Counted from the stretch's first letter, positions 6,228-62,923 are shown. The stretch is DNA of 64,000 nucleotides from an archaeon GW2011_AR15 (GCA_000830295.1 CP010425.1:448001-512000); one strand, 5' to 3'. Translations and numbers: made by a program. Notes: a model not told the origin generated them from the letters alone.

Positions 6228-6228
6228 A

Positions 6229-7064: not shown

Positions 7065-7094
7065 AGTTCTGTTACCCTTACTTTTTCGAAAAAC

Positions 7095-7119: not shown

Positions 7120-7125
7120 CTTTTT

Positions 7126-9671: not shown

Positions 9672-9673
9672 AA

Positions 9674-41375: not shown

Positions 41376-41846
41376 TTAATCAGCCAAGATGATTTCATCG
41401 ACTGGAATGTCCCATTCATTCGTTTCTAGTTTATTCATTAATTGATGTCTGTAACAAAGACCTACAATTCTTTTTTTCCCTTTTATTTTCTCCAAAAATC
41501 TATCAAAATAACCCTTTCCCCTCCCTTTTCTGTTTCCTTTCTCGTCAAACATCCTTCCCGGCACAAAGAAAATTTCAATATCTTCTTTTGTCACAGCAAT
41601 TCTCTTTTTTGGTTCATCAATCCCGTATGCCCCCTTCTGCAGCAACTCAAATTCTCCGATTTCCGATAATTCAATCTCATTTTTCTCTATATTGGACAGC
41701 GGTACCACAACACGCTTTCCACTAAACATCAGATATTTTATTATATTTCTAGTCTCGACTTCGTCATCCTTTGAAATATAAATAAATATAGTCTTAAAAT
41801 CTCTGCACATCTCCAGAACTTTCCTTTCGTAGTCTTTAATATCCAT
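41376..41846 (-). CDS. 5-formyltetrahydrofolate cyclo-ligase (short N-terminus)
   Basis: DEVET, GAYGIDEP, VPGRMFDEKGNRKGRGKGYFDRFL, WDIPVDEII. Confidence 0.88.
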   Translation of the reverse strand: MDIKDYERKVLEMCRDFKTIFIYISKDDEVETRNIIKYLMFSGKRVVVPLSNIEKNEIELSEIGEFELLQKGAYGIDEPKKRIAVTKEDIEIFFVPGRMFDEKGNRKGRGKGYFDRFLEKIKGKKRIVGLCYRHQLMNKLETNEWDIPVDEIILAD

Positions 41847-41904
41847 ATTAACAGGTTAACCATATGTATAAATAAAGTTTATAAAGATTTCTTAATTATC
41901 TTGG

Positions 41905-42738
41905 ATGATGAAACTACTAGATGGCATGAAAGTCAGTGAAGGTATCTCTACCAATCTTGCAAAAATTACAGGCAAATTAAATTTAAAGCTTTCAATAATC
42001 TTGGTTGGCAAAAACCCATCATCAGTTGTTTATGTAAATGCTAAGAAAAGAAAATGCAATACATTAGATATTGAATGTGATGTAGTTCATTTTGATAATG
42101 ATGTTAAAGAAAAGAAAATTCTCGAAAAAATTGAATTACTTAACAATGATAGGATGGTTTCCGGAATTTTGGTCCAGCTTCCTCTCCCCTCTCATCTTGA
42201 CACAAGAAAAATACTAGATTCTGTTGATATAGGTAAAGATGTCGACGGCCTAAATTCATATTATCTAACAAAAATATTCCTGAATGAGGAGAAAATAGTT
42301 CCATGTACTCCAAAAGGAGTTATAACATTGCTTGATTATTATAAAATTAATTTATACGGCAAAAGGATATGTATTCTTGGTTTTAGCAATATAGTTGGGA
42401 AACCCCTAGCTGCAATGTGTATTAACAGAGGGGGGACGGTAACTATATGCAACAGTAAAACAAAGAATATAAAAGAGCACACACTAAGGTCAGATATAAT
42501 CATGAGCTCTGTTGGGAAACCAAAGCTGGTAACAAAGAACATGGTTTCGGATGGAGCAATTGTTGTAGATATAGGTTTTTCAAAAATTAAAGGAAAGACA
42601 TATGGTGATGTTGATTTTAACAACGTCAAAGAAAAATGCGCATATATATCTCCGGTTCCCGGGGGAGTCGGGCCAATGACAATAGTAAGTCTAATACAAA
42701 ATTTAATTCTCTTAAAGAAACTTAAGGACAATTTCTGA
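41905..42738 (+). CDS. folD: Bifunctional methylene-THF dehydrogenase/methenyl-THF cyclohydrolase
   Basis: YVNAKKRKC, GILVQLPLP, KDVDG, PCTPKGV, SNIVGKP, PVPGGVGPMT. Confidence 0.95.
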   Translation: MMKLLDGMKVSEGISTNLAKITGKLNLKLSIILVGKNPSSVVYVNAKKRKCNTLDIECDVVHFDNDVKEKKILEKIELLNNDRMVSGILVQLPLPSHLDTRKILDSVDIGKDVDGLNSYYLTKIFLNEEKIVPCTPKGVITLLDYYKINLYGKRICILGFSNIVGKPLAAMCINRGGTVTICNSKTKNIKEHTLRSDIIMSSVGKPKLVTKNMVSDGAIVVDIGFSKIKGKTYGDVDFNNVKEKCAYISPVPGGVGPMTIVSLIQNLILLKKLKDNF

Positions 42739-42746
42739 ATCTTTTA

Positions 42747-43541
42747 TCACATTGAATTCCAAAGTTCTTCAAATCTAAAAAACCTCTTTTTATTTTTTCT
42801 GAATAATGCATATCCTTCTCTATTTGGCCATGAGAAGTAAGAATGACCTCCTTCTTTTTGCTTAATCGATTTTATTTTGCCTTTCTTTAACTTATTATTG
42901 ATTTCAGAAATCATCTTCTCTATCAATTTTGAACTCTTATAATATACTCTCTGCATAGTGTCATTGGTATCTATAGTATATTTTTTCTGCAAAATTATTT
43001 CTCCGGTGTCCAGCATCGTATTTATGTAATGTGCAGTTACGCCACCTTTTTTCTCATTGTTCGCCGTGACCCAAAAATACGCACATAGCCCCCTGTATTT
43101 TGGTAATAAAGAATCATGAAAATTTATACAGCCATTCTTTGGGATTTTCAAAACCTCTTCCTTTATTTTCTGTGGATAAGAGACACTATAAATAATATCT
43201 GGCCTTAATTTTTTCATTAAATTTATAGTCTCTTCGCTATTGATATCTGCCGTCTTAAATATTGGAAATTTATATTCTTTTGAATATTTGATAAATGGTT
43301 TTAATTGTCCAATATTTAGTGAAGTTTTGATTCTATAGATTTTCTCTTCAAACCATTTGTAAAGACAAAACTGAAAAAAACTCTTCTTAAGCAAGAACCG
43401 CACCGAGCCAAAGAAAGATTTTTTAGGGATAATGAAATCAGGAAATATTACACCAATAATCTCTTTTTTATTTTCCCTCAAAAAATTTTTCAGGGCAATA
43501 TTTGCATACATGTGGTCATTAGATAAGATAAGTATTTTCAT
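42747..43541 (-). CDS. 10-formyl-THF-dependent formyltransferase (probable sugar N-formyltransferase)
   Basis: INFHDSLLPKYRG, GVTAHYI, LDTGEII; lacks the Fmt C-terminal domain; directly downstream of the aminotransferase. Confidence 0.85.
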   Translation of the reverse strand: MKILILSNDHMYANIALKNFLRENKKEIIGVIFPDFIIPKKSFFGSVRFLLKKSFFQFCLYKWFEEKIYRIKTSLNIGQLKPFIKYSKEYKFPIFKTADINSEETINLMKKLRPDIIYSVSYPQKIKEEVLKIPKNGCINFHDSLLPKYRGLCAYFWVTANNEKKGGVTAHYINTMLDTGEIILQKKYTIDTNDTMQRVYYKSSKLIEKMISEINNKLKKGKIKSIKQKEGGHSYFSWPNREGYALFRKNKKRFFRFEELWNSM

Positions 43542-43563
43542 TCTATGCTTTCAGTTCCAACAA

Positions 43564-44661
43564 TTATTTTTCATAAAATTTGATAATAGTTCTGCAAACA
43601 TATTCTATCTGTTCTTTTGCGAGGCTGCAAAACACAGGCAGAGAAAGGCCACAAGTATAGGCCATCTCGGAAATATGATAGTTCTCATTCTTGCTCTTTA
43701 AATCAGAGAAGCATGGCTGCTTATGCAAAGGATAAAAGAATCTTCTTGTCTCTATCTTGTTTTTTTCAAGATAATCAACAAGTTCTTCTACCTTTTCTGC
43801 AAGAATGTTTGCACGGAAAGGTACGATATTTGTGTAGCTATTTTCTCCAAGAAACTTTATCTGTTTTACATTTTTCAGAAGATTTTTGTACATAGCATAA
43901 TTATTCAGTTTTATTTTCTCAATTTCTCCAAATTTTTTTATTTGAGCAACACCAACGGCGCACTGCAAATCTGTCATTCTAAAGTTCATTCCAATCCCCG
44001 GATGGATAAATGTGCTGCTATGTGGTCTTCCCTGATTCCTAAGAAGCTTTATTCTTTCATATATAATCTCATTATTTGTTAGTATCACCGCACCTTCTCC
44101 TGTTGTTATTGTCTTATCTGCAAAAAAAGAAATCATGCCCACATCCCCAATAGTGCCGGTATGTGTTCCTTTGTAAAATACGCCGAAGCCTTGCGCAGCA
44201 TCCTCGATAACCAGCAGATTGTGTTTTTTTGCAATACGCATTATGGGATCCATATCACATGACTGGCCATAGATATGGACAGGCATTATCGCTTTGGTTT
44301 TTTTGGTTATTTTTTCTTCAATTTTTTCTGGATCCATGTTTAAATCTGTCTTTGCAACATCCACAAAAACAGGAGTTGCACCAGTAAATGCAATTGAGGA
44401 GCCAGAGGCATTAAATGTAAAATCAGACACAATAACTTCATCGCCTTTCTTGATCCCACAGCCAAGCAAACACAGGAACAATGCAAGAGTGCCATTAGAC
44501 GCCAGGAGGGCATATCTGGCTTTTGTAAATTCCTGCAGCCTGTCAAGAAATTCCTTGGCAAAAAGCCCTTCAGACAGCCATTTATTCCTGATAACAATCT
44601 CTAGATTTTGCAATTCCTCCTTGCCAACATAAGGCTCTAATTGTGGTACTTTGTATTCCAT
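43564..44661 (-). CDS. DegT/DnrJ PLP aminotransferase, GDP-perosamine synthase-like
   Basis: SNGTLAL, MPVHIYGQ, IEDAAQG, SFFADKTITTGEG, NFRMTDLQCAVG, ETRRFFYPLHKQP. Confidence 0.85.
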   Translation of the reverse strand: MEYKVPQLEPYVGKEELQNLEIVIRNKWLSEGLFAKEFLDRLQEFTKARYALLASNGTLALFLCLLGCGIKKGDEVIVSDFTFNASGSSIAFTGATPVFVDVAKTDLNMDPEKIEEKITKKTKAIMPVHIYGQSCDMDPIMRIAKKHNLLVIEDAAQGFGVFYKGTHTGTIGDVGMISFFADKTITTGEGAVILTNNEIIYERIKLLRNQGRPHSSTFIHPGIGMNFRMTDLQCAVGVAQIKKFGEIEKIKLNNYAMYKNLLKNVKQIKFLGENSYTNIVPFRANILAEKVEELVDYLEKNKIETRRFFYPLHKQPCFSDLKSKNENYHISEMAYTCGLSLPVFCSLAKEQIEYVCRTIIKFYEK

Positions 44662-44690
44662 GTTTCAACACCTAAAACCATCACTATCGT

Positions 44691-46127
44691 CTAAAATAAT
44701 TTAAATTTTACAAATGCTTTCCAGGCCATCTTGAGCAACAAAAATAAATGCTTGAATTTACTGATTATATTTTTTCCATAGGCCTTTGGTTCACCATATA
44801 TTCTAGGAACATAATGTACAGGTATTTCAACAACTTTTAAATTATGCCCTATTGCTCCGAATATCAGCTCAAAATCACCAAAAGGGTCAAAATCACCAAA
44901 ATAACTTATATTTTTTCTTATCTTAAGATAATTTTTTTTGGAAATGGCTTTGAAACCACACAATGTGTCTGTGAACCTTTGGCCTAAAATAACCGTAAAT
45001 AGGTTTCCAAAGAACCGATTTATTATAAAATTGCCAAAAGGCATAGCATCTTTTTCCATTGCATAGACTAGGCGCGTGCCATTTACATATTCTCCAAGAC
45101 CAAGTGCATATGCATCATAAAAGAGCTTTATCTCTTCCGGCGGGGAAGTAAGGTCTGCTTCAAGCCAGCACACAAAATCACCTTTTGCATTATCGAATCC
45201 CATCCTGAAAGCATCACCCTGTCCAATCCCTCTTTGTTTCAGGAATTTTATATCTTTATCAGGGTATTTCTTAATCATTTCCTTGATTTTTTTGACAGTA
45301 TTGTCTTTTGAATGCCCTTCAACAAACAATATTTCTGTGTTTTTTCCCATAGAAGGTATTTTTTTTACAAGCTCCTCAATATTGCCCTCCTCATCTCTAC
45401 AAGTTATTACAACCGAGGTGGTTATGTCCTTGACATTGTCCGGGGGGCACATTAGCCGGGCTATCACGACTTGTTCAAGGCAAAACCGCCTTATTACCGG
45501 CAATTTTGATATTAATGTGTTTGATGCTTCAGAGACAATGGGAAAATATTTCGGAAACAGGAGGAAAAAATCCCTCTTAATCACTTGGTATCCGGCAATA
45601 TAAAGGAAATTATCAATATCATCTATAGAAGGCCAGTTAAATATCATTTCAGGCTTCTTCATTCCTAAAGATTCAGATATTTTTAGTATAGGGTTCCACA
45701 GTTGATTGTAATAGTTTATTATGAGCCTTGTGTCTGAACTACACATCTTTGAGATATTCTGAAGCAGTCTCTGTATATTCTTTACAGACCCGATAGTACC
45801 GGAGATTATAATATAATCAAATTTAAAATCAACAGAAAAAGATTCAATATCTTCACAATAGAACTTTATTTTAGGATATTTTTTCTTTGCTATTTTTATC
45901 ATTCCATCACTTATATCAACTCCAACACCATAAGAAGAGTAAAGATTTCCAATTAAATTACCAGCACCACATCCAAGCTCCAGTATACTGCTGTTTCTCG
46001 GGATGTTATTTCTATAATATCTTAGTATTTGACTATGATAATACATATTTTTTTTATACCAGGTGTCCCATCTTTTAGAAACAGAATTATTGATCTCCCT
46101 TATTTTATTCAGCTTATCACCCACCAT
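44691..46127 (-). CDS. Methyltransferase-GT2 glycosyltransferase fusion
   Basis: N-terminal LELGCGAG; C-terminal CRDEEGNI, VEGHSKDNT, LEADL, TDTLCGFK, FDPFGDFELIFGA. Confidence 0.85.
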   Translation of the reverse strand: MVGDKLNKIREINNSVSKRWDTWYKKNMYYHSQILRYYRNNIPRNSSILELGCGAGNLIGNLYSSYGVGVDISDGMIKIAKKKYPKIKFYCEDIESFSVDFKFDYIIISGTIGSVKNIQRLLQNISKMCSSDTRLIINYYNQLWNPILKISESLGMKKPEMIFNWPSIDDIDNFLYIAGYQVIKRDFFLLFPKYFPIVSEASNTLISKLPVIRRFCLEQVVIARLMCPPDNVKDITTSVVITCRDEEGNIEELVKKIPSMGKNTEILFVEGHSKDNTVKKIKEMIKKYPDKDIKFLKQRGIGQGDAFRMGFDNAKGDFVCWLEADLTSPPEEIKLFYDAYALGLGEYVNGTRLVYAMEKDAMPFGNFIINRFFGNLFTVILGQRFTDTLCGFKAISKKNYLKIRKNISYFGDFDPFGDFELIFGAIGHNLKVVEIPVHYVPRIYGEPKAYGKNIISKFKHLFLLLKMAWKAFVKFKLF

Positions 46128-46147
46128 AATAGCATTCCAACCCCGCC

Positions 46148-47203
46148 CTAATCATAATATTCGCTCGCGGAGCTTTCCTTCCAGTCAGATTCCACCATAA
46201 TTCTCACAAGCTCTTTAAACTTTGTTTTTGGTTGCCATTTTAGTTTTTTCTTGGCTTTTGTTGAATCCCCAAGCAGCGTATCAACCTCTGCAGGTCTGAA
46301 GTATCCTTTGTCTATTCTAATTATAGCTTTGCCGGTTTTTTTATCGATTCCAACTTCATCCAGGCCTTTACCTTCCCATTTAATCTGAATTCCAAGAACA
46401 TTACATGTTTCTTCAATAAACTCTCTTACAGAATGGTTTTCTCCTGTTGCAATGACATAATCTTCAGGTCTCTCCTGTTGCAGCATAAGCCACATTGCCT
46501 CAACATAATCCTTAGCATACCCCCAATCTCTCTCTGCATTAATATTTCCAAGATAAACACAATCCTGCAATCCTTTTTTCACTCTGCACAGCCCCAATGT
46601 TATTTTTCTTGTTACAAAAGTTTCACCCCTTCTTGGGGATTCATGATTAAACAGGATTCCATTGCAGGCAAATAAATTATAGGCCTCCCTGTAATTTACA
46701 GTTATCCAGTAAGAAAAAACTTTTGCGCAGGCATACGGGCTTCTCGGATGAAACGGGGTTGTTTCTTTCTGTGGTGTCTCCCATACTTTACCAAATATCT
46801 CTGAGCTTGATGCCTGATAGAACCTTGATTTGAACTGATTTTCCCTTAATGCTTCTAGTATTCTCAGCGTGCCCAACGCAATAGTGTCAGCTGTATATTC
46901 AGGAATCTCAAAACTGACTTTTACGTGACTTTGGGCTCCAAGATTGTAAATTTCATTTGGTCTGATAGTCCTTAATATGTGGTTTATGTTACTAGCATCT
47001 GTAAGGTCACCGTATATAGTATCAAATCTTGGATGATTGTAGATATGGTTTATCCTTTTTGTATTAAATGAGCTTGATTTTCTTTGTATCCCATATACAT
47101 TATAGCCTTTTTCCAATAGAAACTCAGCAAGATAGGAGCCGTCCTGCCCAGTAATTCCGGTTATCAATGCCCTTTTGGCGCTTTTTGTTGTCTCGTTAGT
47201 CAT
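46148..47203 (-). CDS. gmd: GDP-mannose 4,6-dehydratase
   Basis: [54 protein letters not shown]. Confidence 0.97.
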
Positions 47204-47295: not shown

Positions 47296-48549
47296 ATGTA
47301 TAAAGTTGCAATAATCGGCTTAGGTTATGTCGGCCTTCCTCTGGCATGCCTCTGCGCAAAAAAAGGGCATAAAGTCATAGGGCTGGACATAGACAAAAAC
47401 AAAATCGATAAAATCAATATCGGAGTAAGTCCTCTTGATGATGAATACATCAAAAAAAATCTGAAAAAAGGCGCAATTGTAGCAACTGATGATTTTTCAA
47501 AAATAAAAGCTGCAGAAATCATTGTTATATGCGTTCCAACCCCAGTAAATAAGGAACATCTCCCTGATTTGTCTTTTGTGGAAAAGTCAGTCGAGAGCGT
47601 GTCAAAAAATCTGGAAAAAGGACAATTAGTAGTCTTGGAAAGCACAGTCTACCCCGGCACAACAGAGGAAATAATCAAACCCATTCTTGAAAAATCAGGA
47701 AAAGCATTTTACCTGGCGCACTGCCCTGAAAGGATTGATCCCGGAAACAAAAAATGGACAATTGAGAATATTCCAAGGGTTGTTGGCGGCACAAATCACG
47801 AATCAACAGAAAAGGCCGCAGAATTCTATAGGACAATAATAAGCGCCGATATCATTGAAGTTAAATCATCCAAAGAAGCTGAAGCAACCAAAATAATGGA
47901 GAATACCTTCAGGGATGTCAACATAGCCTTCATCAATGAGATGGCAAAGAGCTTTGACAGGGCAGGAATTGATATTATTGATGTGATAAAAGGGGCGTCC
48001 TCAAAGCCGTTTGCATTCATGCCGCACTATCCGGGGGTAGGAGTCGGTGGCCACTGCATTTCAGTTGATCCCCATTACCTAATTGCAAAGGCAAGAGGAT
48101 ACGGGTTTGAGCATGAATTTCTGAAGCTGGCAAGGAAAATAAACGACAGCATGCCCGAATACACTGTCGAACTTCTGGAAAAAGAGCTGAAAAAATCTGG
48201 AAAAGACCTTGCAGGAGCAAAAGTAGGTGTTCTTGGCCTGGCATACAAAGGCAACATTGACGACATAAGGGAGAGCCCGGCGGTTGAGGTAATAAAGATA
48301 TTAAAAGAGAAAAAAGCAAATGTTGTTGTTTACGATCCCCACATTCCGATAAAATCAGATGCAAAAACTCTTTCAGAACTAGTGGATAAATCAGACTATC
48401 TTATTCTTGTGACTGCGCATGACGAATTCAGAAATATGGATCTTGAGAAACTCAAGGGAAAAATAAAAATAATAATTGATGGAAGGAACTGCCTTGATAA
48501 AAACAAAGTAATAGCTTTGGGCATAAAGTATAAAGGCATAGGAAGGTAG
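47296..48549 (+). CDS. UDP-N-acetylhexosamine dehydrogenase (WbpA/WecC-like)
   Basis: GLGYVGLPLA, ESTVYPGTT, PERIDPGN, ENTFRDVNIA, GVGGHCI. Confidence 0.9.
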   Translation: MYKVAIIGLGYVGLPLACLCAKKGHKVIGLDIDKNKIDKINIGVSPLDDEYIKKNLKKGAIVATDDFSKIKAAEIIVICVPTPVNKEHLPDLSFVEKSVESVSKNLEKGQLVVLESTVYPGTTEEIIKPILEKSGKAFYLAHCPERIDPGNKKWTIENIPRVVGGTNHESTEKAAEFYRTIISADIIEVKSSKEAEATKIMENTFRDVNIAFINEMAKSFDRAGIDIIDVIKGASSKPFAFMPHYPGVGVGGHCISVDPHYLIAKARGYGFEHEFLKLARKINDSMPEYTVELLEKELKKSGKDLAGAKVGVLGLAYKGNIDDIRESPAVEVIKILKEKKANVVVYDPHIPIKSDAKTLSELVDKSDYLILVTAHDEFRNMDLEKLKGKIKIIIDGRNCLDKNKVIALGIKYKGIGR

Positions 48550-48555
48550 CTTCCT

Positions 48556-50106
48556 ATGGCAGAATACTCAAAAAAAATAGTAAAAGGCACAATAACAGTG
48601 CTTATTTTCACGTTTCTTTCTGCTCTTTTGGGATATGTTCTGAAATTCGTGTTTGCAAGATATCTGCAGGTTGAAGAGATTGGTCTTTTTTATTCCGTTC
48701 TGGGATTTATTCTTTTCTTTGCATTCATCAGAGATTTGGGTCTGTCTGATTCCCTTACGTATTTTATTCCAAGATTTAAAGTAGATAACAAAAAGAAAAA
48801 TATCAAATCAGCTATTTTATTTACACTCTATATCCAGATGGCAATCGGAATTCTGTTTGCTGTTGTTTTTGTTGCATTGTCAAATACTCTTGTAAAATAT
48901 TATTTTAAGGATGAACGGGCACTTTTTCTCATACTCGGGCTTGCATTTTACTTTGTTATCGAAGGGATTTATGAAGTATTATTCCAATCTTTCCAGGGAT
49001 TTCAGGATATGTTTCTTTTTCAGGGGCTGGAGTTTTCTTTCCAGGTCATATCACTTGCCTTTTTTTTGGTATTTATATTTGCCAAAATACCAATAACATA
49101 TTTTGCCATAGTTTATCTTATTAGCATGATAATTTCCACAACAATTTTCTTCGTTTTGTTTGTTAAAAAGTTGTTTCCGGATTTCTTTTATATAAAGACA
49201 AAAATATCAAAAAAACTGAAAAAAGAAATGCTTGAGTATTCATTTCCAACAATGATGGGTAGCCTTGCGGGTACAATCTTTAGCCAGCAATCAGTATTCT
49301 TCCTCACTTTTTTTGTAGGACTTGAAGCAGTGGGCTATTATGTCATGGCGCACGCTCTTGCAAAAATCTCAATCTTCTTTTTCAAGGCTGTAAATTTTGT
49401 TTTTTCCCCCATAATGTCAGAGATGTGGAAAAAGAAAGACATCAAAAGCCTGAATTATTATTTTAATGAAATGATAACATACACATATGTTGTTGGGGTT
49501 CCGATGGTCCTCGCTCTTGTTGTTTTTCCCCAAGAGATTCTTAGGATATTATATTCAGACTCCTTTTTGCCAGCATCACAAGCCCTAATGCTATTAGCAT
49601 TTTATTACCCTTTTTTTAGTTTTAACAGCCTCTTCAAAAGAGCATTTTTAAGCGCCGGCATGCCAAAACTTGCAAGAAATGCAACGTATGCCACACTAAT
49701 AGTAAACCTGGTTTTTAATATTGTTCTTATCCCCACATATGGCCTTCTTGGTGCAGTAATAGCCGATATAGTATCTATCGCTATTACAACAATTTATGTA
49801 TTATATCTAAACCACAAACACCTATCAATCCTCATAGATAAAAATAAACTTGTAAGGGTTATCGTAGCTTCAACACTTTTCATCATATCTGCGGCCGTCC
49901 TTAAGCACATAATTAACATGCCAATAATCCTTGAATTGATTTTAGTATTGATTATTGCAGGCGGCACTTATATAGGGGCCATATTCGCTCTTGGCATAAT
50001 ATCGTTTAAGAAAATAATTTTTGTTTTGGATTTAATTACCAATAAGAAGTTTAGGCATTATTTTTTGAAAGAAGAGAAAGTGCCAATTAAAGATACCCCC
50101 AAATAG
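48556..50106 (+). CDS. Oligosaccharide flippase (Wzx/MOP family)
   Basis: About 14 hydrophobic segments, DLGL motif, LVFNIVLIPTYGLLGAVIA. Confidence 0.88.
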   Translation: MAEYSKKIVKGTITVLIFTFLSALLGYVLKFVFARYLQVEEIGLFYSVLGFILFFAFIRDLGLSDSLTYFIPRFKVDNKKKNIKSAILFTLYIQMAIGILFAVVFVALSNTLVKYYFKDERALFLILGLAFYFVIEGIYEVLFQSFQGFQDMFLFQGLEFSFQVISLAFFLVFIFAKIPITYFAIVYLISMIISTTIFFVLFVKKLFPDFFYIKTKISKKLKKEMLEYSFPTMMGSLAGTIFSQQSVFFLTFFVGLEAVGYYVMAHALAKISIFFFKAVNFVFSPIMSEMWKKKDIKSLNYYFNEMITYTYVVGVPMVLALVVFPQEILRILYSDSFLPASQALMLLAFYYPFFSFNSLFKRAFLSAGMPKLARNATYATLIVNLVFNIVLIPTYGLLGAVIADIVSIAITTIYVLYLNHKHLSILIDKNKLVRVIVASTLFIISAAVLKHIINMPIILELILVLIIAGGTYIGAIFALGIISFKKIIFVLDLITNKKFRHYFLKEEKVPIKDTPK

Positions 50107-53381: not shown

Positions 53382-54350
53382 ATGCAAAAAGTGCTTGTAA
53401 TCGGGGGTGCAGGATTCATTGGGTCTTTTATAGCAAGAGCCTTAGTTGAAAGAAAAATAGATGTTACAATATTTGACTCCTTTTACCAATATCTTCCAAA
53501 ACTTGTTCCTGACGAAAATAAGATACTGGCACAGGAAAATAGGTTTAAGGATATAGAAGGCAAAATTAAGGTTATTAGGGGCAATGCTGCAAATTATGGA
53601 GAAGTAAGGAGGGCAATTGAAGAGCAGGACCCGGACTGCATAATACACCTTGCAGGACTCCCATTAGCGAACAAATCGAATATCTATATCGAAGAATCGC
53701 TTGAGGGTGTGAAAGCTACAGGATGCATACTGCAGGTCATAAAAGACACAGGAAAGAAAATAAAATTTATCTACACCTCGTCAAGCACAGTGTACGGCGA
53801 TTTTGTATATCAGCCGGCAGATGAGGATCACCCCAAAAATCCGAGGGGAGTATATGCAGGGGTTAAGCTTGCAGGAGAACATATTACCTCATCATTCTGC
53901 CGCCAGTTTAACATTTCATATGTAATAATCAGGCCGAGCGGAGTTTATGGGCCGACAGACATAAATGAAAGGGTTGTGCAGAAATTCATAGAAAATGCAA
54001 TTGAGGGAAAGGAGATTGTCGTAAAAGACCCGACAAATATGATAGACTTCACATATGTGAAAGACCTTGCCGAAGGATATGCCCTTGCAGTTATAAAAGA
54101 AGAAGCCAATAACGAAACTTTTAACATTACTTGCGGCCAGGGAAGAACACTTGGTGAGCTTGCAGAGATAATAAAGAAGCATTTCCCGAAAACTAAATTG
54201 AAGATTGATGAGGCAGACAAAGACCTTCCAAGAAGAGGCGGGCTTAGCATAGAGAGAGCGAAAAAGAAGCTTGGGTATGTACCAAAATATCCACTCGAAA
54301 AAGGAATTGAGGAATATATTGTGTATTATAAGAGAAATGTCAGAAAATAA
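53382..54350 (+). CDS. NAD-dependent epimerase/dehydratase
   Basis: IGGAGFIGS, SSSTVYGD, YAGVK, RPSGVYGP. Confidence 0.88.
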   Translation: MQKVLVIGGAGFIGSFIARALVERKIDVTIFDSFYQYLPKLVPDENKILAQENRFKDIEGKIKVIRGNAANYGEVRRAIEEQDPDCIIHLAGLPLANKSNIYIEESLEGVKATGCILQVIKDTGKKIKFIYTSSSTVYGDFVYQPADEDHPKNPRGVYAGVKLAGEHITSSFCRQFNISYVIIRPSGVYGPTDINERVVQKFIENAIEGKEIVVKDPTNMIDFTYVKDLAEGYALAVIKEEANNETFNITCGQGRTLGELAEIIKKHFPKTKLKIDEADKDLPRRGGLSIERAKKKLGYVPKYPLEKGIEEYIVYYKRNVRK

Positions 54351-55479
54351 AGTACCATTATGCAGGCCAGAAATTGGAGAAAAAGAGATAGAGGAGATAA
54401 AAAGAGTTCTGGATTCCGGCTGGCTGGCGCATGGTCCCAAGGTAAAAGAATTTGAAAAAAAATTTGCCGAATATATCGGTGTGAAGTATGCGGTTTCCCT
54501 CAATTCCTGTGCATCAGCCCTTCAGGCTGCAATAATGGCAAAAAACCTGAAGGGAGAGATAATTCTTCCTTCTTTTACCTTTCCTGCCTCAGCCAATGCA
54601 ATAATCAATGCAGGATGTATTCCAGTATTTGCAGAGATAAGAAAAGACACAATGAACATAGATATTTCCGATGTAGAGAAGAAAATCACTTTAAGAACAG
54701 TTGGCATAATGCCAGTCCATTTTGCAGGTCAAAGCTGTGAAATGGATAAGATAATGGAGCTTGCAAAAAAACACAATATGACGATCATAGAAGATTCTGC
54801 AGAAGCAATAGGAACAACATATACTGGCAAAAAAACAGGAGCTTTTGGAGAGGGATGTTTTAGCTTTTACCCGACAAAAAATATAACCACGGCAGAGGGA
54901 GGCATGGTTACCACAAACAGCAAAGAAACTGCCGAGATGGTACAGACTATAAGGGGGCACGGAGTAAGCAAGGGCGCATATGAAAGGGAACATGCTGAAA
55001 AGCCATGGATAAGAATGGCAACAATGCCGGGATATAATTTCAGGATGAATGAGATACAGGCCGTGCTTGGTATTGAACAATTGAAAATCCTGGATGAACT
55101 CAATGAAAAGAGAAGAAAGAATGCTCAATATCTGAACCGAGGATTATCTCGGTATAGGGAAATAACAACACCATATGAAGATAAGAAAGGAAAGCACACA
55201 TACCAGATGTATGTAATTCAGCTTGATGAAAAAATAGATAGGGATGCTTTTGTAATATATTTGAGAAATAACGGCGTGGAAGCAAATGTCCATTTCTTTC
55301 CCGGAGTCCATCAGCATCCGTATTATGAAAAAACATTTGGGAAAAAGAGTCTGCCAGTAACAGAATCAATTTCTAGAATAGTTGCTACACTACCGATGTT
55401 TCCATCGATGACAAAGAAGCAAATGGATATAATAATTGAGAAAGTTGGAGAAGCCCTGAAAACAGCAAGATGGCATTAA
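54337..55479 (+). CDS. DegT/DnrJ PLP aminotransferase
   Basis: NSCASAL, EDSAEA, FSFYPTKNITTAEGGM, GYNFRM; start MSENKVP at 54337. Confidence 0.9.
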   Translation: MSENKVPLCRPEIGEKEIEEIKRVLDSGWLAHGPKVKEFEKKFAEYIGVKYAVSLNSCASALQAAIMAKNLKGEIILPSFTFPASANAIINAGCIPVFAEIRKDTMNIDISDVEKKITLRTVGIMPVHFAGQSCEMDKIMELAKKHNMTIIEDSAEAIGTTYTGKKTGAFGEGCFSFYPTKNITTAEGGMVTTNSKETAEMVQTIRGHGVSKGAYEREHAEKPWIRMATMPGYNFRMNEIQAVLGIEQLKILDELNEKRRKNAQYLNRGLSRYREITTPYEDKKGKHTYQMYVIQLDEKIDRDAFVIYLRNNGVEANVHFFPGVHQHPYYEKTFGKKSLPVTESISRIVATLPMFPSMTKKQMDIIIEKVGEALKTARWH

Positions 55480-55910
55480 TCATAAAAGAAATTGACGTTG
55501 ATATTACAAAAACACAGTTTGAGCATATTAAAAATCTTCTGATACAGCTTTATCCGAAAAATATGCCGCTCAGCTATCAGAGTTACAGAAATACACTCTT
55601 GGAAAATAAAATACGTGTTTTTTCAGCAGAAGAAAATAACAGAATAATAGCTATTGCAACATTAGTCATCTATAAGAAGCTTGGTGGCATTGTTGCGACT
55701 ATAGAAGATGTAGTAGTTGATAATTCAGAAAGAGGAAAAGGCGTAGGCACAAAACTGACCAGAAAACTGCTTGAAGAGGCAAAAAAAGCAGGGGTTAATT
55801 TTGTGGATGTAAACACAAGAAGACCGGATGCAAAGGCATTCTATGAGAAGTTGGGATTTACAGATAAAACGAAAGATAGGCCATTTTATTCGCTGAGATA
55901 TTATTTTTGA
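55470..55910 (+). CDS. GNAT N-acetyltransferase (GNA1-like)
   Basis: IEDVVVDNSERGKGVGTKL, AFYEKLGF. Confidence 0.88.
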   Translation: MALIIKEIDVDITKTQFEHIKNLLIQLYPKNMPLSYQSYRNTLLENKIRVFSAEENNRIIAIATLVIYKKLGGIVATIEDVVVDNSERGKGVGTKLTRKLLEEAKKAGVNFVDVNTRRPDAKAFYEKLGFTDKTKDRPFYSLRYYF

Positions 55911-57626: not shown

Positions 57627-58628
57627 TTATTGATTCAGCTCACCTTTTATTATTCTTGTAGATGACAGTCCAGGCAGAAGCTTTACAATGTGGATGCTCC
57701 CGCCATGTTTCTTTATGGTAGACGCTTCCACGCAATCCTTGCCGTATTCTGACCCATTTACATGGACATCGGGTCTTATTTTTTCCAAGAGCCTGACAGG
57801 CGTGGTTTCGTTGAACACAGTTACATAATCTACTTCCATGTAGTTAGCCATCATTTTTTGCCGGGACAATTCATTGTTTAATGGCCTGTCATTGCCCTTG
57901 TTCTGCCTGACAGAGGAATCAGAATTGACAGCTATTATAAGCACATCTCCCTGTTTTTTTGCCTCTGAGACTATATAATCATGACCCTCATGGAGAATAT
58001 CAAAGGTGCCATTCAGTGTAACAATTCTTTTTCCTGTGCTTTTTAATTTGATTGAAATCTCTACTAATTTTTTGCTGTCTACGATTTTGTCATAATCAGA
58101 GAATTTAAGGAAGTCAGCGGCTCTTGACAGATTCCCGGCGATGTAGCTTGGATTTTTTTCTCTGGCTACTGCTAATTGCGATGGACCGAGGCCAGTCAGC
58201 AAAAAAACAGATTTCATTCCAGAATTAATGCCCAGCACAATATCTGAGGCTTTGTCGCCTATGACCCATGAAGAAACCAAATCCAGTTGATATTTGTCTC
58301 TGGCATCACGGATCATTTTTGGCTTTGGCTTCCTGCATGCGCAATTGTCTTCTGGAGCATGGGGGCAGAAATATACCCTTTCTATATTGATATTGTGTGC
58401 AGACAGCACATGCAATAATTTATTGTTATAGGATTCCATATCTTCTTTTGAAAAAATCCCCCTGGCTATGCCGCTTTGGTTTGTGACAATGAAAAGTTTA
58501 TATGTTTTTAACTTTTCTAATCCTTCTATGACACCTGGAAGAAGGGCAAAATCCTCAACTCGGTGAGAAAAACCAATGTCTCTGGTTAATGTTCCATCCC
58601 TGTCAAGAAACACAGCGCTATTGCTCAT
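57627..58628 (-). CDS. gmhB: Fusion of heptose-1,7-bisphosphate phosphatase (GmhB) and heptose-1-phosphate adenylyltransferase (RfaE domain II/HldC)
   Basis: FLDRDGTL, TNQSGI, CPH...CACRKP, IGDKASD; then NGTFDILHEGH, NSDSSVRQNKG, GLSST. Confidence 0.92.
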   Translation of the reverse strand: MSNSAVFLDRDGTLTRDIGFSHRVEDFALLPGVIEGLEKLKTYKLFIVTNQSGIARGIFSKEDMESYNNKLLHVLSAHNINIERVYFCPHAPEDNCACRKPKPKMIRDARDKYQLDLVSSWVIGDKASDIVLGINSGMKSVFLLTGLGPSQLAVAREKNPSYIAGNLSRAADFLKFSDYDKIVDSKKLVEISIKLKSTGKRIVTLNGTFDILHEGHDYIVSEAKKQGDVLIIAVNSDSSVRQNKGNDRPLNNELSRQKMMANYMEVDYVTVFNETTPVRLLEKIRPDVHVNGSEYGKDCVEASTIKKHGGSIHIVKLLPGLSSTRIIKGELNQ

Positions 58629-59583
58629 TTTTCAGGCTTTGACGAAGCTCATCAAGCATCACAGGAGCAGTGCCTATTTTAGTGACTTTCACGCCAGCAC
58701 AATGGTTGGAAATTATTGCAGCATCATAAAGCGCTGCTCCAGAAGCGATAGATAATGCAAGTGCAGCAACAGCGGTGTCGCCAGCACCAGACACATCAAA
58801 AACTTCTTTTGCCAGGGTTGGTATCTGAATTATGCTTTTTCCCTTTTCAAAAATTGCCATTCCTTTTGCTCCTAGTGTGATTATTACATTGCTTTGGAAT
58901 AGCTCTATCAACTTATTTCCTGCCCTTTGCAGATCCTCAGGATTATCAAGATGGATGCCTGTCATCTCCTCTGCTTCCTTCCTGTTGGTCTTGATAAGGT
59001 AGGCGCCTTTGAAATAATTCTTGTGTCTGGGCTTCGGATCCGCAATTAAAGGAATATTTTTCTTGTTACAATAACTGACTAATTCTGATGCAAGTTGCTG
59101 GGTCAATACCCCTTTAGCATAATCCGAGACTATCACTGCATCTGGATTATTAATCCCGACGGCATTTAATACCAACTTCTTGCTTATCCCATGCTCAATC
59201 GGCTCTCTTGATTCATAATCTATCCTTACTATCTGCTGTTTCTGGCCAATTACCCTGATTTTCTGGGTCGTGGGCCTGTTAGATGAAAAAACTACGCCCC
59301 CGACATCAATGTGATTTTCGTCAGCACATTTCATAAATATATCTTTAGCAGCATCCTGCCCTAAAACACCCAATAAAAATGCCTTGCCGGAGAGCGTCAC
59401 GATATTGTTTGCAGTATTGGCAGCGCCCCCTAGCACATATTTCTCGTCACTGACATCGATAATGGGAACTGGAGCCTCCTGGGAAATCCTGTCTGCTCCT
59501 CCAAAAATATATTTATCAAGCATCAGGTCGCCTACTACCAGAATCCTTTTTTTAGAGAATTCCTTTAGATATTTTTCATACAT
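58618..59583 (-). CDS. Heptose-7-phosphate kinase (RfaE domain I/HldA)
   Basis: VGDLMLDKY, RISQEAPVP, GGAANTA, SDYAKG, VFDVSGAGDT. Confidence 0.93.
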   Translation of the reverse strand: MYEKYLKEFSKKRILVVGDLMLDKYIFGGADRISQEAPVPIIDVSDEKYVLGGAANTANNIVTLSGKAFLLGVLGQDAAKDIFMKCADENHIDVGGVVFSSNRPTTQKIRVIGQKQQIVRIDYESREPIEHGISKKLVLNAVGINNPDAVIVSDYAKGVLTQQLASELVSYCNKKNIPLIADPKPRHKNYFKGAYLIKTNRKEAEEMTGIHLDNPEDLQRAGNKLIELFQSNVIITLGAKGMAIFEKGKSIIQIPTLAKEVFDVSGAGDTAVAALALSIASGAALYDAAIISNHCAGVKVTKIGTAPVMLDELRQSLKNEQ

Positions 59584-60469
59584 GTATCATCACTGAATAT
59601 TCTTTTATAGCATCGGCAAGCTTATGCACAGCCTTGAATCCCAGGTATTTCTCAGCTCTATGTGTATCAGCCTGTGTGTGCATCTGATATGTTTTAAGGT
59701 CATATGGAACATCTATGTATTCCGGCTCAATATCTGTTCCCAGTGCCTCTTGTATCATGCTGTATAGTTCCTTGAATGATGTTGCTATGCCTGTGCCCAC
59801 ATTATAGATCCCGGCCCGGGAATCCAGTGCCAAAAGATTTGCCCTTACAACATCTTTGACATAAATATGGTCCCTCTTCTGTTCGCCCCACTTGAAAAGC
59901 TTTGGCTTTTTGCCTTCTTTAATCTGCCTAATCAGGTGGTAAATCATGGAGGCCGGCCTTCCTTTGTGGAGCTCATTTGGGCCGAAAACATTAAAATACC
60001 TCAAACCAACAATGTGCATATCATCAAAATGGTATGTAGCCATCTCGTCCATAATCAGTTTTGACTGGGCGTAAGCGCTTTGTATATCCTTTTCCTGATC
60101 TTCTTTTTGCGGAGTCGGGCTGTTCCCGTATATGCTGGCACTTGAGGCGTAGATAAGTTTTGCATTGCTACCTTTTGCCAATTTAAGCATATTCTTGAAT
60201 CCGTTGATATTTTTCCTAATGGTTTCTTCATCATTTCCATATCTTGGGTCAGTAATTGCTGCCTGGTGGAATATTGCATCAAATTTTTCTTTTATTGACA
60301 ACTGGCCTGACAGGTCTTCATTAATGAATTTTCCTTTCAACCCTTTCAGATTATCTTCATGGCCGGAAAGCAAATTATCAATTACAACTACCGAATGCCC
60401 CAGCTTCTCAATCTCGAGTGCAATATTTGATCCTATGAAACCTGCCCCGCCTGTGACAAGACATTTCAT
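59576..60469 (-). CDS. rfaD: ADP-L-glycero-D-manno-heptose 6-epimerase
   Basis: TGGAGFIGSN, HQAAITD, YASSASIYG, LRYFNVFGPNELHKGRPASM, GEQKRDHIYVKD, YQMHTQAD. Confidence 0.85.
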   Translation of the reverse strand: MKCLVTGGAGFIGSNIALEIEKLGHSVVVIDNLLSGHEDNLKGLKGKFINEDLSGQLSIKEKFDAIFHQAAITDPRYGNDEETIRKNINGFKNMLKLAKGSNAKLIYASSASIYGNSPTPQKEDQEKDIQSAYAQSKLIMDEMATYHFDDMHIVGLRYFNVFGPNELHKGRPASMIYHLIRQIKEGKKPKLFKWGEQKRDHIYVKDVVRANLLALDSRAGIYNVGTGIATSFKELYSMIQEALGTDIEPEYIDVPYDLKTYQMHTQADTHRAEKYLGFKAVHKLADAIKEYSVMIHV

Positions 60470-61029
60470 TTTAAAGCTTCCCTCTCAACAAGTTCACAGA
60501 TAATGTGGTAGGCTGTCATATGGCATTCCTGAATTCTTGCAGTCTCTTTTGCCGGGCAATTTATATTATAATCACTCATTGCCTTAAGTTTCCCGCCGTC
60601 CCTTCCAGTCAGAGAGATATTTACAGTCCCTATTTCCTTTCCCCTGGCAAAGGCATTGAGTACATTTTGAGAATTTCCAGAGGTGGATATGCCAAGCAAT
60701 ATATCTGAAGGAGATGCAAGCGCCTCAACCTGGCGCGAGAAAACCCGATTATAATCATAGTCGTTTGATACAGCAGTCAATATTGAACTGTCTGTGGTCA
60801 AAGCAATTGCAGGCAGGCCCTTTCTTTCAAGCTTGTATCTTCCGACAAGCTCCGCAGCAATATGCTGTGAATCAGCAGCCGAGCCCCCGTTTCCGAATAT
60901 CAGAATTTTATTGCCTCTCATTAATGCCTCACTGATTACATTGCTTATCTTCTCAAGCATGTCTGCCTGGCTGAAAAGCTCATTCTTGGCAGCGATAGAT
61001 TCCTGAATAATATCTTTAATTGATTGCAT
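60466..61029 (-). CDS. gmhA: Phosphoheptose isomerase
   Basis: GNGGSAADSQHIAAELVGRY, NDYDY, STSGNS, TARIQECH; start MQSIK at 61029. Confidence 0.96.
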   Translation of the reverse strand: MQSIKDIIQESIAAKNELFSQADMLEKISNVISEALMRGNKILIFGNGGSAADSQHIAAELVGRYKLERKGLPAIALTTDSSILTAVSNDYDYNRVFSRQVEALASPSDILLGISTSGNSQNVLNAFARGKEIGTVNISLTGRDGGKLKAMSDYNINCPAKETARIQECHMTAYHIICELVEREALK

Positions 61030-61141
61030 GGGCAGAAAGAGGCGGGTTTTATTTATATAACTTTTTGTATTTTTCGAACCGACCCCGTCGTTTAAATAAC
61101 CCACCCCAAAATATTTAAAACCATTAAATATTATAAGCGGA

Positions 61142-62923
61142 ATGAAACAAAAGATTTTATTCGGTGCAGCATATTCAATTATTGAGCCGCTCGGTCTTTT
61201 GCATCTGGGTGGATTGGCTAGGGATTTAGGGTTTGAAACGGATTATTGCTTGGTCAAAAACCAGGAGTATTCAGAGTTCCATGATAAAGTAAAAGCTGAA
61301 AAGCCAGATTTCGTAGGATTTAATGTATATACGGGCAATCACCTCAGCCTTTACAAATATCTTGGACTCCTAAAAAAAGAATTCCCTAAAATCAAGACCA
61401 TACTTGGCGGGCCCCATTCCAGCTATTTCCCTTATGAAGCTGTCAAGCATGCAGATTATGTGGTGATGAGCGAAGGCTTCACAGGACTTAAGCAGATACT
61501 CCTGGGAGAGGCTGCCAAGGGAGTGATTCCGCCGGCAAGGGAGAGTTTTACATTTCCAATTCCCGACAGAAAAAAATTCTATTCCTTGTATCCAAAGCAT
61601 GGCAGTAGCCCAATAAAAAGCATAATTACGATGACGGGCTGCCCTTTCAGGTGCACCTATTGCTACAATAGCTCAAATATCGAAGATGTAACTTCCGGCC
61701 TTTCTAAAGAAGTACTGCTCAAATTTGACAAGTCCAGGCTGCCAGGAAGGCTGTTCGCCTGGAATATAAGGACTGTGGATGCTGTGATTCAGGAGGCTAT
61801 AGAACTTGTTAAGAATTATCCGACAAAAATGATATATTTCCAGGATGATGTTTTTGGTATGAAACTCAAATGGCTTGAGGAATTTGCAAAGAGATGGCCA
61901 AAAGAAGTAGGCATCAAATGGCATGCGCAGATGAGGTGGGAAATGACTGTAGGAGAGAGCGGGTGCCAGAGGCTGGATTTGTGCAAATCTGCAGGATGCA
62001 GCGGACTCACCCTGGCAATAGAAGCTGCTGATCCTGTGATGAGGGCAGAAGTGCTGGACAGAACAATGCCGCAGGAAATGATCTTTGAAGGAATGAAAAA
62101 CTGCACAGACAGGGGACTTATGATAAGGACTGAGCAGATAACCGGCCTGCCGTATGGTGCAACAAGCGCACCCACAAAAATAAACCTTGGCGCAGACCTG
62201 CAGATTCTTGAATTGAATGTCAGGTTGAGGGAAAATACAGGCGGACCCCATATTGCATGGGCATCCACTTTTGTGCCTTATGCAAGGACAAGGCTCGGCA
62301 TATATTCAACAAACTACGGATTTTACGGCAATCCCGGAGACGAAAACTGGGACATCAAGGATACTTTTTTCGAGAAAAGTGTGTTAAAATTTCTGAAAAA
62401 CTATGTTGGCCCGGAGCTCAAAGAAAAGAAAAATTTGCAGGATTTGTGGCTTTCGGGGCAAGAGCTCGAACAATACAGAAACCAAAATGCGCAACTTAGG
62501 CATCATTTCAATGTATTTGCATACCTTGACAAAGGCCACGAGTTTGCTGAAAAATACATTAAGCGTGGTGAATACACCTTTGAAGCTCTTGGAGAGATGG
62601 TGAGGGACTGGCAAAAGCACAAAATCAGCAAGGAAGATGAGAAGAAGTTTATATCTAAAATCTCTCAATATATAAAAACCGAATCACAGAAAAAATCAGT
62701 TGTTTCGCTGGCCCCATATTTGATGTCTGTGCCTTATCCAGAAGAACTGGCAAGACGCTTCCTAAATTATGCTGAAAAAAAGGGACATGAGATGAGTGTA
62801 TTGAGCGATGCTGTGAGGCATCATCTATATGATTATGTTGTGTATCAGGTTGAAGCACCATCAGATACGTCATCATCCTATTCAATCAAATTGCCTGGCT
62901 CTGCAATTTCTTATGAATGCTGA
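61142..62923 (+). CDS. Cobalamin-binding radical SAM protein
   Basis: EPLGLLHL...GGPHSSY B12-binding-like domain; GCPFRCTYCYN CxxxCxxC; YFQDDVF. Confidence 0.88.
   Translation: MKQKILFGAAYSIIEPLGLLHLGGLARDLGFETDYCLVKNQEYSEFHDKVKAEKPDFVGFNVYTGNHLSLYKYLGLLKKEFPKIKTILGGPHSSYFPYEAVKHADYVVMSEGFTGLKQILLGEAAKGVIPPARESFTFPIPDRKKFYSLYPKHGSSPIKSIITMTGCPFRCTYCYNSSNIEDVTSGLSKEVLLKFDKSRLPGRLFAWNIRTVDAVIQEAIELVKNYPTKMIYFQDDVFGMKLKWLEEFAKRWPKEVGIKWHAQMRWEMTVGESGCQRLDLCKSAGCSGLTLAIEAADPVMRAEVLDRTMPQEMIFEGMKNCTDRGLMIRTEQITGLPYGATSAPTKINLGADLQILELNVRLRENTGGPHIAWASTFVPYARTRLGIYSTNYGFYGNPGDENWDIKDTFFEKSVLKFLKNYVGPELKEKKNLQDLWLSGQELEQYRNQNAQLRHHFNVFAYLDKGHEFAEKYIKRGEYTFEALGEMVRDWQKHKISKEDEKKFISKISQYIKTESQKKSVVSLAPYLMSVPYPEELARRFLNYAEKKGHEMSVLSDAVRHHLYDYVVYQVEAPSDTSSSYSIKLPGSAISYEC

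Follow-up and report, generated by a model that had tools for sequence, protein, structure and literature searches.

Why does an archaeon with a small genome that appears, from its gene content, unable to make purines keep two enzymes of folate one-carbon metabolism, and why do both lie in a gene cluster for surface sugars? These questions are raised by a 64,000-nucleotide (nt) stretch of the archaeon GW2011_AR15 (CP010425.1:448001-512000), hereafter called the window, in which folD and the gene for a short 5-formyl-tetrahydrofolate (5-formyl-THF) cyclo-ligase, MTHFS, adjoin genes of a predicted pathway to a formylated amino sugar. The host genome (G000) is a single contig of 1,157,790 bp, estimated to be ~96.8% complete, and carries archaeal markers (PolD DP2, Cdc6/Orc1, Hjc and an archaeal tRNA-splicing endonuclease); genome sizes and gene losses suggest a DPANN-like lineage. 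A sequence-only reading of the window had described six of these genes as a self-contained cassette that turns scavenged folates into formylated surface glycan. Our analysis makes it likely that this archaeon, with its small genome and purine auxotrophy, has in the window a glycan cassette of low GC content and horizontal mobility, which would make a GDP-4-formamido-4,6-dideoxyhexose (in the simplest case GDP-N-formylperosamine) and carries two folate enzymes that keep the formyl donor available.

Gene content, order, copy number, base composition, conservation and phylogeny are observed directly. Open reading frame (ORF) calls, Pfam and NCBIfam place gmd, a fusion of a methyltransferase and a GT2 glycosyltransferase (MT-GT2), an aminotransferase, a formyltransferase (FT), folD and MTHFS exactly where the sequence-only reading had put them (Table 1), and its account of their orientation holds as well: the first four are all on the minus strand and meet folD, which is divergent from MTHFS. 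The minus-strand genes are separated by 20-29 nt, with 22 nt between FT and the aminotransferase gene, and FT and folD are convergent with stop codons 8 nt apart. The spacer between MTHFS and folD is AT-rich with TATA-like runs and is probably a bidirectional promoter. The functional unit is longer than had been thought, as it runs past 41376 down to 37991: beyond MTHFS a methyltransferase gene and an Fcl-like gene follow on the same strand, convergent on the gene of a PMT_2-family GT-C glycosyltransferase, and this order is syntenic in a metagenome locus (L070). The GC content dips to 0.32-0.38 at ~38-58 kb of the window, between flanks of 0.42-0.48, and this low-GC stretch is a glycan island.

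The next question is which other processes in this genome could use the folate enzymes. The idea that the window holds the only folate genes of the genome has to be rejected, and the term self-contained is unsupported, since SHMT (at 1.02 Mb), the adjacent ThyA and DHFR (at 36-38 kb) and a FolC-like gene (at 527 kb) lie elsewhere. PurH, ThyX, FTHFS and DHPS gave no match in the genome (PurH 0, FTHFS 0), and PurH, PurE, PurL and FTHFS were not found in it by tblastn with the proteins of relatives. Because there is no DHPS match, folate is probably salvaged. The genes folD, MTHFS and FT are each single-copy in the 1.16-Mb genome and all three lie in the cassette; FT is the sole Formyl_trans_N protein (1 match) and, as far as its sequence can be recognised, the only consumer of 10-formyl-THF. 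The composition separates the two sets of folate genes: the GC content of folD (0.332) and MTHFS (0.348) is like that of FT (0.298) and PMT_2 (0.328), whereas SHMT (0.465), ThyA (0.467), DHFR (0.456) and the FolC-like gene (0.449) are on the other side of the genome value of 0.425.

This arrangement is also found outside the window. One metagenome contig (L070) holds the whole cassette, in the order dehydrogenase-Gmd-MT-GT2-Per-FT, then folD, then MTHFS-methyltransferase-Fcl, then PMT_2-flippase, and a second one (L068) holds FT, folD and MTHFS; protein identities are 58-79%, with the flippase at 44%. The position of the folate genes, on whose conservation the sequence-only reading had made itself depend, is thus conserved in both contigs, and a similar pair exists in a congener (G002). 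There folD is 60% identical to that of the window and stands in the same divergent arrangement with a short MTHFS, which heads an operon of a Polysacc_synt_2 dehydratase, a DegT aminotransferase and FT within a glycan island; this sugar N-formylation set is non-orthologous to the window's. Two tandem short FT-like genes (L051:8625-9296 and 9280-9924) with 40% mutual identity are located 3' of the DegT gene in G002, and one of them is undetected by Pfam at 1e-6. Since folD, MTHFS and FT are single-copy in the genome and their adjacency recurs in independent genomes, the arrangement is more than chance. For folD and MTHFS, the GC content shared with the island, the synteny in L070 and the arrangement in L068 together point to a probable common inheritance with the cassette.

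Among 40 relatives, no FT orthologue was found (best match 31% identity), folD is present in 11 and MTHFS in 14. In most relatives the MTHFS-folD pair, fused in some, lies in purine operons (purD-MTHFS-folD-purN-purH-purE-purL) or beside FTHFS. As 13 of the 40 keep SHMT without folD, the basic SHMT cycle does not require folD. The sole distant FT match in the search of genome contigs (L067, Nitrosopelagicus; 32% identity) lies with three DegT genes and a Gmd-like gene, with no folD in 20 kb. Thirty distant metagenome FT loci (L073-L102; 24-44% identity over the best aligned segment) gave no folD, MTHFS, Per or Gmd match at E<=1e-8 and can be regarded as a crude negative background.

We surveyed 401 sampled genomes of the archaeon's order, with folD called at E<=1e-30, and found folD in 103 (G000 included). 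Six folD-positive genomes flagged as unpublished were left out, and the remaining 96 loci were taken at +/-9 kb and scored with a tblastn panel. Within 6 kb of folD, purine genes occur in 53 of them, a sugar-type FT and/or DegT gene without purine genes in 13, both in 1, FTHFS only in 2 and none of these in 27; the panel gave no DegT or sugar-FT match in the 53 purine-type loci or the 27 loci with neither. MTHFS is found <=6 kb from folD in 52 of the 96. Ten further loci of the same order, judged by eye with the 6-kb rule, are of purine type (3) or sugar type (7). Overall, with G000 not counted, 21 of 106 folD loci are sugar-linked (12 families), lying beside sugar formyltransferases or aminotransferases. 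A Formyl_trans_N protein is present in 97 of the 103 folD-positive genomes, a tally that takes in 6-7 genomes flagged as unpublished and in which related genomes are not independent, and 8 of 14 genomes with a sugar-linked folD have no PurH match.

Most sugar-linked folD loci are nonulosonic-acid or Arn-like clusters, some with SHMT, FolC and a transporter. A recurrent operon of the nonulosonic-acid type comprises, by Pfam, a PseB-like dehydratase, DegT, folD, SHMT, Vut_1, a FolC-like gene, MTHFS, an acetyltransferase, a 2-epimerase, FT, PIG-L and NeuB, and such operons with folD were seen in G186, G251, G403, G061, G147, G273 and G214. In G305, one ORF of 872 amino acids (aa; L219:6563-9181) joins MTHFS, both domains of FolD, and SHMT, with two FTs, a DegT gene, a FolC-like ligase and a Vut_1 transporter as neighbours. 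Shorter MTHFS-FolD fusions of 465-494 aa occur in purine and sugar contexts alike (L054:7121-8530, L055:1841-3238, L058:6391-7791 and L144:8998-10482), and a database protein of 422 aa (P0093) is such a fusion as well, 57% identical to the window's FolD. The gene annotated as Vut_1, "putative vitamin uptake transporter", stands recurrently between SHMT/folD and the FolC-like ligase; its product is a candidate folate importer, for which tblastn gave no homologue in G000. G286 (L132:10552-11946) and G158 (L133:6330-7715) each encode a protein of 461-464 aa that carries Formyl_trans_N at its N-terminus, and each of these genes is adjoined by a Polysacc_deac_1 gene; the G286 copy has a C-terminal GNAT acetyltransferase match and none is listed for the G158 copy.

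The folD tree was built from 103 rows (one short row dropped) in the quick mode of IQ-TREE with LG+G4 and a midpoint root. In this tree 15 of 16 sugar-linked rows, together with the mixed row, fall within one group of 21 rows, and the window's folD nests with those of L068, L070, G002 and G286/G158 (support 96-99). Purine- or FTHFS-linked folDs of the window's own family sit in another group. The sugar-link label requires 5 changes on the tree against a mean of 15.1 for shuffled labels, and 0 of 500 shuffles were as low. The earlier interpretation therefore stands in part: the folate genes appear functionally tied to the sugar FT by synteny, survey, GC content and tree, while the claims of a self-contained cassette and of the only folate genes fall away. 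The data favour a real functional coupling of the folD/MTHFS pair with glycan formylation: the pair moves together with genes for this process, and in a purine-auxotrophic genome no other client of it can be recognised. As the pairing is repeated in related archaea, the main reason for keeping the folate genes of the cassette may be the supply of formyl groups to sugars of the cell surface.

The FT itself has a strong Formyl_trans_N match, and the Pfam scan gave no match to PF02911 (Formyl_trans_C), the tRNA-binding C-terminal domain of Fmt-type enzymes. Its best PDB sequence match is the N-terminal domain of ArnA (5.6e-21); WbkC (3.2e-18), Fmt (4.4e-18) and PseJ (5.5e-18) match as well. The segments INFHDSLLPKYRG and LDTGEI align to ArnA motifs, and the N-x-H...D triad and SLLPKYRG are present. 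In 39 FT homologues H142, D178, L146, P147, Y149, R150 and G151 are invariant and N140 is kept in >=90%; we take the residues of the Asn-His-Asp triad and of the SLLPxxRG folate motif to be catalytic. The predicted model (predicted local distance difference test score 93.4) has a formyltransferase fold with Foldseek E values down to 3e-18, and from motifs and model together FT looks catalytically competent. FT forms a small family of its own, with 11 clusters at 56-70% identity, all of 263-266 aa, below which identity drops to <=41%. An orthology to WbkC was considered and rejected, since neither the sequence nor the fold of FT singles out WbkC over ArnA or Fmt: in Foldseek the first WbkC appears at rank 30, with ~21% identity and a TM score of 0.59-0.68, no better than ArnA or Fmt. 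Assignment of the substrate from the fold was likewise dropped, as Foldseek did not separate sugar from tRNA formyltransferases. An amino-sugar substrate is predicted from the context, namely the 22-nt gap to the DegT gene and the conserved neighbours.

Of the other sugar enzymes, Gmd scores above the equivalog cut-off of TIGR01472. The aminotransferase has no NCBIfam equivalog above cut-off; its best PDB match is 7b0m (2.6e-75, "sugar aminotransferase"), the Caulobacter perosamine synthetase 3bn1 matches at 4e-69, and the Lys in its FFADKTITTGEG motif aligns to the FFGNKIITTGEG motif of 3bn1, so that the Lys for pyridoxal 5'-phosphate (PLP) is kept. N-formylperosamine is a plausible product. 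The best NCBIfam matches of MT-GT2 are AglJ (1.6e-21), PgfS, ArnC (3e-12) and a halobacterial dolichyl-phosphate (Dol-P) hexose transferase, all under cut-off, and by these matches its GT2 half is like polyprenyl-phosphate glycosyltransferases. The PMT_2 GT-C is a candidate for the enzyme that moves the lipid-linked sugar to the final acceptor. For the Fcl-like gene the top 18 PDB matches are all GDP-L-fucose synthases (best 1.9e-44), and it is syntenic in L070 and directly follows FT in another orthologous locus (L071). The methyltransferase downstream of MTHFS is syntenic in L070 with 72% identity and absent in L071, and the nucleotide-sugar dehydrogenase and the flippase both stand beside the cassette in L070.

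Table 1. Positions of the cassette genes and related features; positions without a locus name count from the first nucleotide of the window.
Feature	Position	Strand	Basis and remarks
PMT_2-family GT-C glycosyltransferase, 535 aa	37991..39598	+	Pfam PMT_2 1.3e-13, PMT 3.6e-10; 60% identity, syntenic in L070
GDP-L-fucose-synthase-like (Fcl-like) epimerase/reductase, 309 aa	39605..40534	-	NF047922 202.9 bits, under cut-off 500
S-adenosylmethionine (SAM)-dependent methyltransferase, 253 aa	40570..41331	-	Methyltransf_11 8.2e-22; same strand as and downstream of MTHFS
Short 5-formyl-THF cyclo-ligase (MTHFS), 156 aa	41376..41846	-	PF01812 1.8e-31; TIGR02727 128.4 bits vs cut-off 84.9
MTHFS-folD divergent spacer	41847..41904		58 nt, AT-rich, TATA-like runs, read from the sequence
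FolD, methylene-THF dehydrogenase / methenyl-THF cyclohydrolase, 277 aa	41905..42738	+	PF02882 2e-57, PF00763 3.2e-31
N-formyltransferase (FT), sugar type, 264 aa	42747..43541	-	PF00551 (Formyl_trans_N) 91.3 bits vs gathering cut-off 26.1
Perosamine-synthase-like PLP sugar aminotransferase, 365 aa	43564..44661	-	DegT_DnrJ_EryC1 5.8e-104
Methyltransferase + GT2 fusion (MT-GT2), 478 aa	44691..46127	-	Methyltransferase domains residues 36-183; Glycos_transf_2 1.6e-18, residues 238-392
GDP-mannose 4,6-dehydratase (Gmd), 351 aa	46148..47203	-	TIGR01472 563.6 bits vs cut-off 415; 79% identity in L070
Nucleotide-sugar dehydrogenase (417 aa) + Wzx/MurJ-type flippase (516 aa), cassette flank	47296..50106	+	TIGR03026 456 bits; Polysacc_synt 3.7e-23
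Short MTHFS elsewhere	L051:12204-12650 (G002, 148 aa); L132:9871-10332 (G286, 153 aa); L133:8485-8949 (G158, 154 aa)
Vut_1 genes	L155:5325-5951; L132:8297-8923; L133:9884-10510; L144:10471-11097; L219:4604-5251

How could these proteins work together? The enzymatic activities, the identity of the sugar and the lipid-linked steps in the following scheme are all predictions. Gmd would convert GDP-mannose to GDP-4-keto-6-deoxymannose, the Per-like PLP enzyme would aminate C4, and the 264-aa FT would transfer the formyl group of 10-formyl-THF to the amine, with release of THF. SHMT, encoded outside the cassette, would then regenerate 5,10-methylene-THF from THF and serine, and the FolD of the cassette would convert it to 10-formyl-THF by oxidation and hydrolysis. 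The short MTHFS would return 5-formyl-THF, as a by-product of SHMT or as scavenged folinic acid, to 5,10-methenyl-THF. Because SHMT, ThyA, DHFR and the FolC-like gene are present elsewhere in the genome, serine via SHMT and FolD is the likelier one-carbon source, with MTHFS serving recycling or salvage and not the main entry; the route proposed before, from 5-formyl-THF through MTHFS and the cyclohydrolase of FolD, may serve as a second entry. The GT2 half probably loads the sugar on dolichyl phosphate, after which the PMT_2 GT-C would pass it to a surface acceptor. Such an Arn-like lipid-linked delivery is suggested, by analogy, by the GT2 and PMT_2 pair here and by PMT_2-FT-GT2 triads beside MTHFS-folD in three genomes of the survey (G112, G477 and G453). 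A second 6-deoxyhexose may be made from the Gmd product by the Fcl-like enzyme.

Several observations weigh against such a coupling or against parts of it. Two orthologous loci lack the association: L071 has a contiguous Gmd-MT-GT2-Per-FT-Fcl with no folD within 20.8 kb, and L069 is without folD next to FT. Since folD is present with FT in L070 and L068 and not in these two, the folD/MTHFS/methyltransferase block has either been inserted into an older operon or been lost from it. In the survey 66 of 401 genomes hold a Formyl_trans_N protein without folD, so a private folate supply is not obligatory, and 6 of the 14 genomes with a sugar-linked folD also have PurH, where folD may serve purines too. 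The sugar-linked group of the folD tree has an SH-aLRT of 87, which is moderate support on a midpoint-rooted tree, and its related genomes do not count as independent samples. By sequence and fold WbkC is no nearer to FT than ArnA and Fmt are, and the sugar substrate of FT is predicted from the gene context. FolD stays under the NCBIfam FolD equivalog cut-offs (best 294 vs 423) and reads GFSNIVGKP (G-F-S) in place of the G-R-S motif, so that it is without the conserved Arg, which we take to contact the 2'-phosphate of NADP. The motifs YxxxK, QLPLP, KDVDG, PCTPKG and PVPGGVGP are conserved in the alignment. The Arg is present in 79 of 86 folDs without a sugar link and in 1 of 17 that are sugar-linked or mixed, and this pattern is a signature of a clade and not a series of independent events.

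MTHFS raises a similar doubt. It has a PDB match to 1sou (6.9e-21) and matches only positions 38-184 of the 186 of the PF01812 profile, with ~37 N-terminal positions missing. Its open frame has 159 aa, with a stop codon 3 codons upstream of the start, and in the alignment it lacks the K..LR..L.LR N-terminal helix of full-length relatives, so it does not qualify as a full-length fold. Without this conserved helix the enzyme may be impaired or altered. A subclade of such short proteins exists, 148-156 aa long and without the helix, whose members nevertheless share ~50% identity, and this suggests an enzyme that is maintained and may have been altered.

The same cassette can be explained in other ways. 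One option is that formylation is transient, as in the Arn pathway: the formyl group would pull an unfavourable transamination and mark the sugar for the polyprenyl-phosphate GT2, and would be removed after transfer to leave an amine that is free or otherwise modified, and the folate coupling would hold in this case too. The Arn parts list is in the cassette (aminotransferase, FT, a GT2 with its ArnC match, and a PMT_2 GT-C), the triads in G112, G477 and G453 fit this option, and a Polysacc_deac_1 gene, presumably of the family of ArnD, stands next to FT in G286, G158 and G411. Yet none of the 63 window ORFs scanned has a Polysacc_deac_1 domain, the deacetylases of two relatives have no tblastn match in the whole genome, and known archaeal and bacterial glycans retain N-formyl sugars (PMC6137143). 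We regard transient formylation as unlikely; because no deformylase was found in the window ORFs or the genome, the formyl group is probably retained in the glycan.

Another option is that folD and MTHFS are housekeeping genes for general folate salvage, turning scavenged 5-formyl-THF into methylene-THF for thymidylate, and are mere hitch-hikers in the glycan island. The genome does hold ThyA and DHFR, folate import would be needed as no DHPS was found, the MTHFS-folD pair is conserved in the order whatever its context (52 of the 96 loci), and 27 of these loci have neither purine nor sugar neighbours. These points are countered by the 13 of 40 relatives that have SHMT and do without folD, by the formyltransferase in nearly every folD-positive genome (97 of 103), by a GC content of folD and MTHFS that is the island's and unlike that of ThyA, DHFR and SHMT, by the synteny with FT conserved at 58-79% identity and by the grouping of sugar-linked folDs in the tree, all of which make general salvage quite improbable. 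It can also be asked whether FT acts on a sugar at all or on Met-tRNA, glycinamide ribonucleotide (GAR), a peptide or a lipid amine, with its place in a glycan cluster being incidental. Met-tRNA formyltransferases are among its best Foldseek matches, and beyond 41% identity its sequence homologues are mostly Fmt-like. However, FT has only 264 aa and no tRNA-binding domain, archaeal translation is not known to start with formyl-Met, the genome is without a purine pathway, and FT lies 22 nt from a sugar aminotransferase gene on the same strand; in three of five orthologous loci (L070, L071 and L072, one side of L072 being uninformative) the aminotransferase or MT-GT2 abuts it. The action on Met-tRNA or GAR that the sequence-only reading had named as fatal to itself is for the most part not what we find, and a non-sugar substrate is highly improbable. 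The coupling of the folate pair to sugar formylation is our preferred explanation.

Can this explanation be extended to the order? Throughout a large order of archaea with small genomes, a specialised, horizontally exchanged folate module would then have become an accessory to the formylation of surface glycans, and the purine-auxotrophic members, this genome among them, would keep the whole 10-formyl-THF branch for surface decoration only. The module would consist of the FolD clade without the G-R-S Arg and of MTHFS, with a variable addition of SHMT, the FolC-like ligase and Vut_1, and in one genome it is a fused MTHFS-FolD-SHMT. We put this forward tentatively, giving it slightly less than an even chance; if true, these cells would commonly bear N-formyl sugars, and selection would act on them to an important degree.

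The proposed coupling gives a concrete reason for the retention of FolD and MTHFS in genome-reduced archaea that are unable to make purines. It predicts that N-formylated sugars, of the perosamine type and of the nonulosonic-acid type alike, are a widespread feature of their surfaces, which bears on host attachment and virus recognition. The analysis also identifies a FolD subgroup in which the motif for cofactor binding is altered, an MTHFS that is truncated by nature, and MTHFS-FolD(-SHMT) fusions, and suggests Vut_1 as a candidate folate transporter. More generally, genes for cofactor supply can travel with glycan cassettes, and this can help to annotate "housekeeping" genes in variable islands.

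Other gene sets of the window can be mentioned here. The same glycan island holds a second amino-sugar set at 53382-55910, where an epimerase/dehydratase, another DegT aminotransferase and a GNAT acetyltransferase are encoded between genes of GT1 glycosyltransferases. At 57627-62923 a B12-binding radical SAM protein is encoded together with heptose-type genes (a HAD and cytidylyltransferase fusion, a PfkB kinase, an epimerase and a SIS isomerase); a B12-radical SAM gene is likewise found in the glycan island of G002, along with that of a GT9 heptosyltransferase. At 122-7476 nine ORFs of 116-566 aa follow in a row, and at 1e-5 Pfam recognises just one of them, by a lamin-tail domain.

How does the cassette compare with known systems? 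N-formyl sugars and their formyltransferases are already known, archaea included, as the Halorubrum report describes (PMC6137143). Our literature search, outside of which most subscription journals and supplements lie, gave no paper that links folD or MTHFS with sugar formyltransferase clusters, and the gene tables of DPANN genome papers could already list the association. The bacterial Gmd/Per/WbkC system (structures 5vyr-5vyu) has the same combination of a GDP-mannose 4,6-dehydratase, a PLP C4 aminotransferase and an N10-formyl-THF-dependent FT of ~260 aa without a C-terminal domain. The window's FT is not an orthologue of WbkC, as its distance in sequence and fold tells, and it lies in an archaeal cassette together with a Dol-P-type GT2, a PMT_2 GT-C, an Fcl-like gene and embedded folD and MTHFS; we know of no folate genes in the bacterial clusters. 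With the Arn system of polymyxin resistance (ArnB, the ArnA FT domain, ArnC, ArnD and ArnT) it shares an aminotransferase, an FT, a polyprenyl-phosphate GT2 and a GT-C, and the ArnA N-terminal domain is the best PDB sequence match of FT. The precursor is predicted to be a GDP-6-deoxyhexose here, whereas it is a UDP-pentose in Arn, no ArnD-type deformylase was found in the window's genome, and the GT2 is fused to a methyltransferase and the folate genes lie within the cluster.

In archaea, the nearest case with chemical evidence is Halorubrum sp. PV6, where 5-N-formyl-legionaminic acid, an N-formyl sugar, occurs on the S-layer glycoprotein and the glycan gene cluster has a predicted N-formyltransferase (PMC6137143). 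The sugar there is a nonulosonic acid, whereas a perosamine-type sugar is predicted here, and neither "folate" nor "tetrahydrofolate" occurs in the text of that report (PMC6137143). The Pse/Leg-like clusters with embedded folD-SHMT-FolC-MTHFS belong to another archaeal order, the one of our survey. From the purine operons MTHFS-folD-purN-purH of the same order the cassette differs in that its consumer is a sugar FT and purine genes are absent, and in that its folD belongs to the other tree group and is without the G-R-S Arg. What the two have in common is the pair that makes 10-formyl-THF next to its consumers, which in the purine form is found at 53 of the 96 folD loci, with MTHFS-FolD fusions occurring as well.

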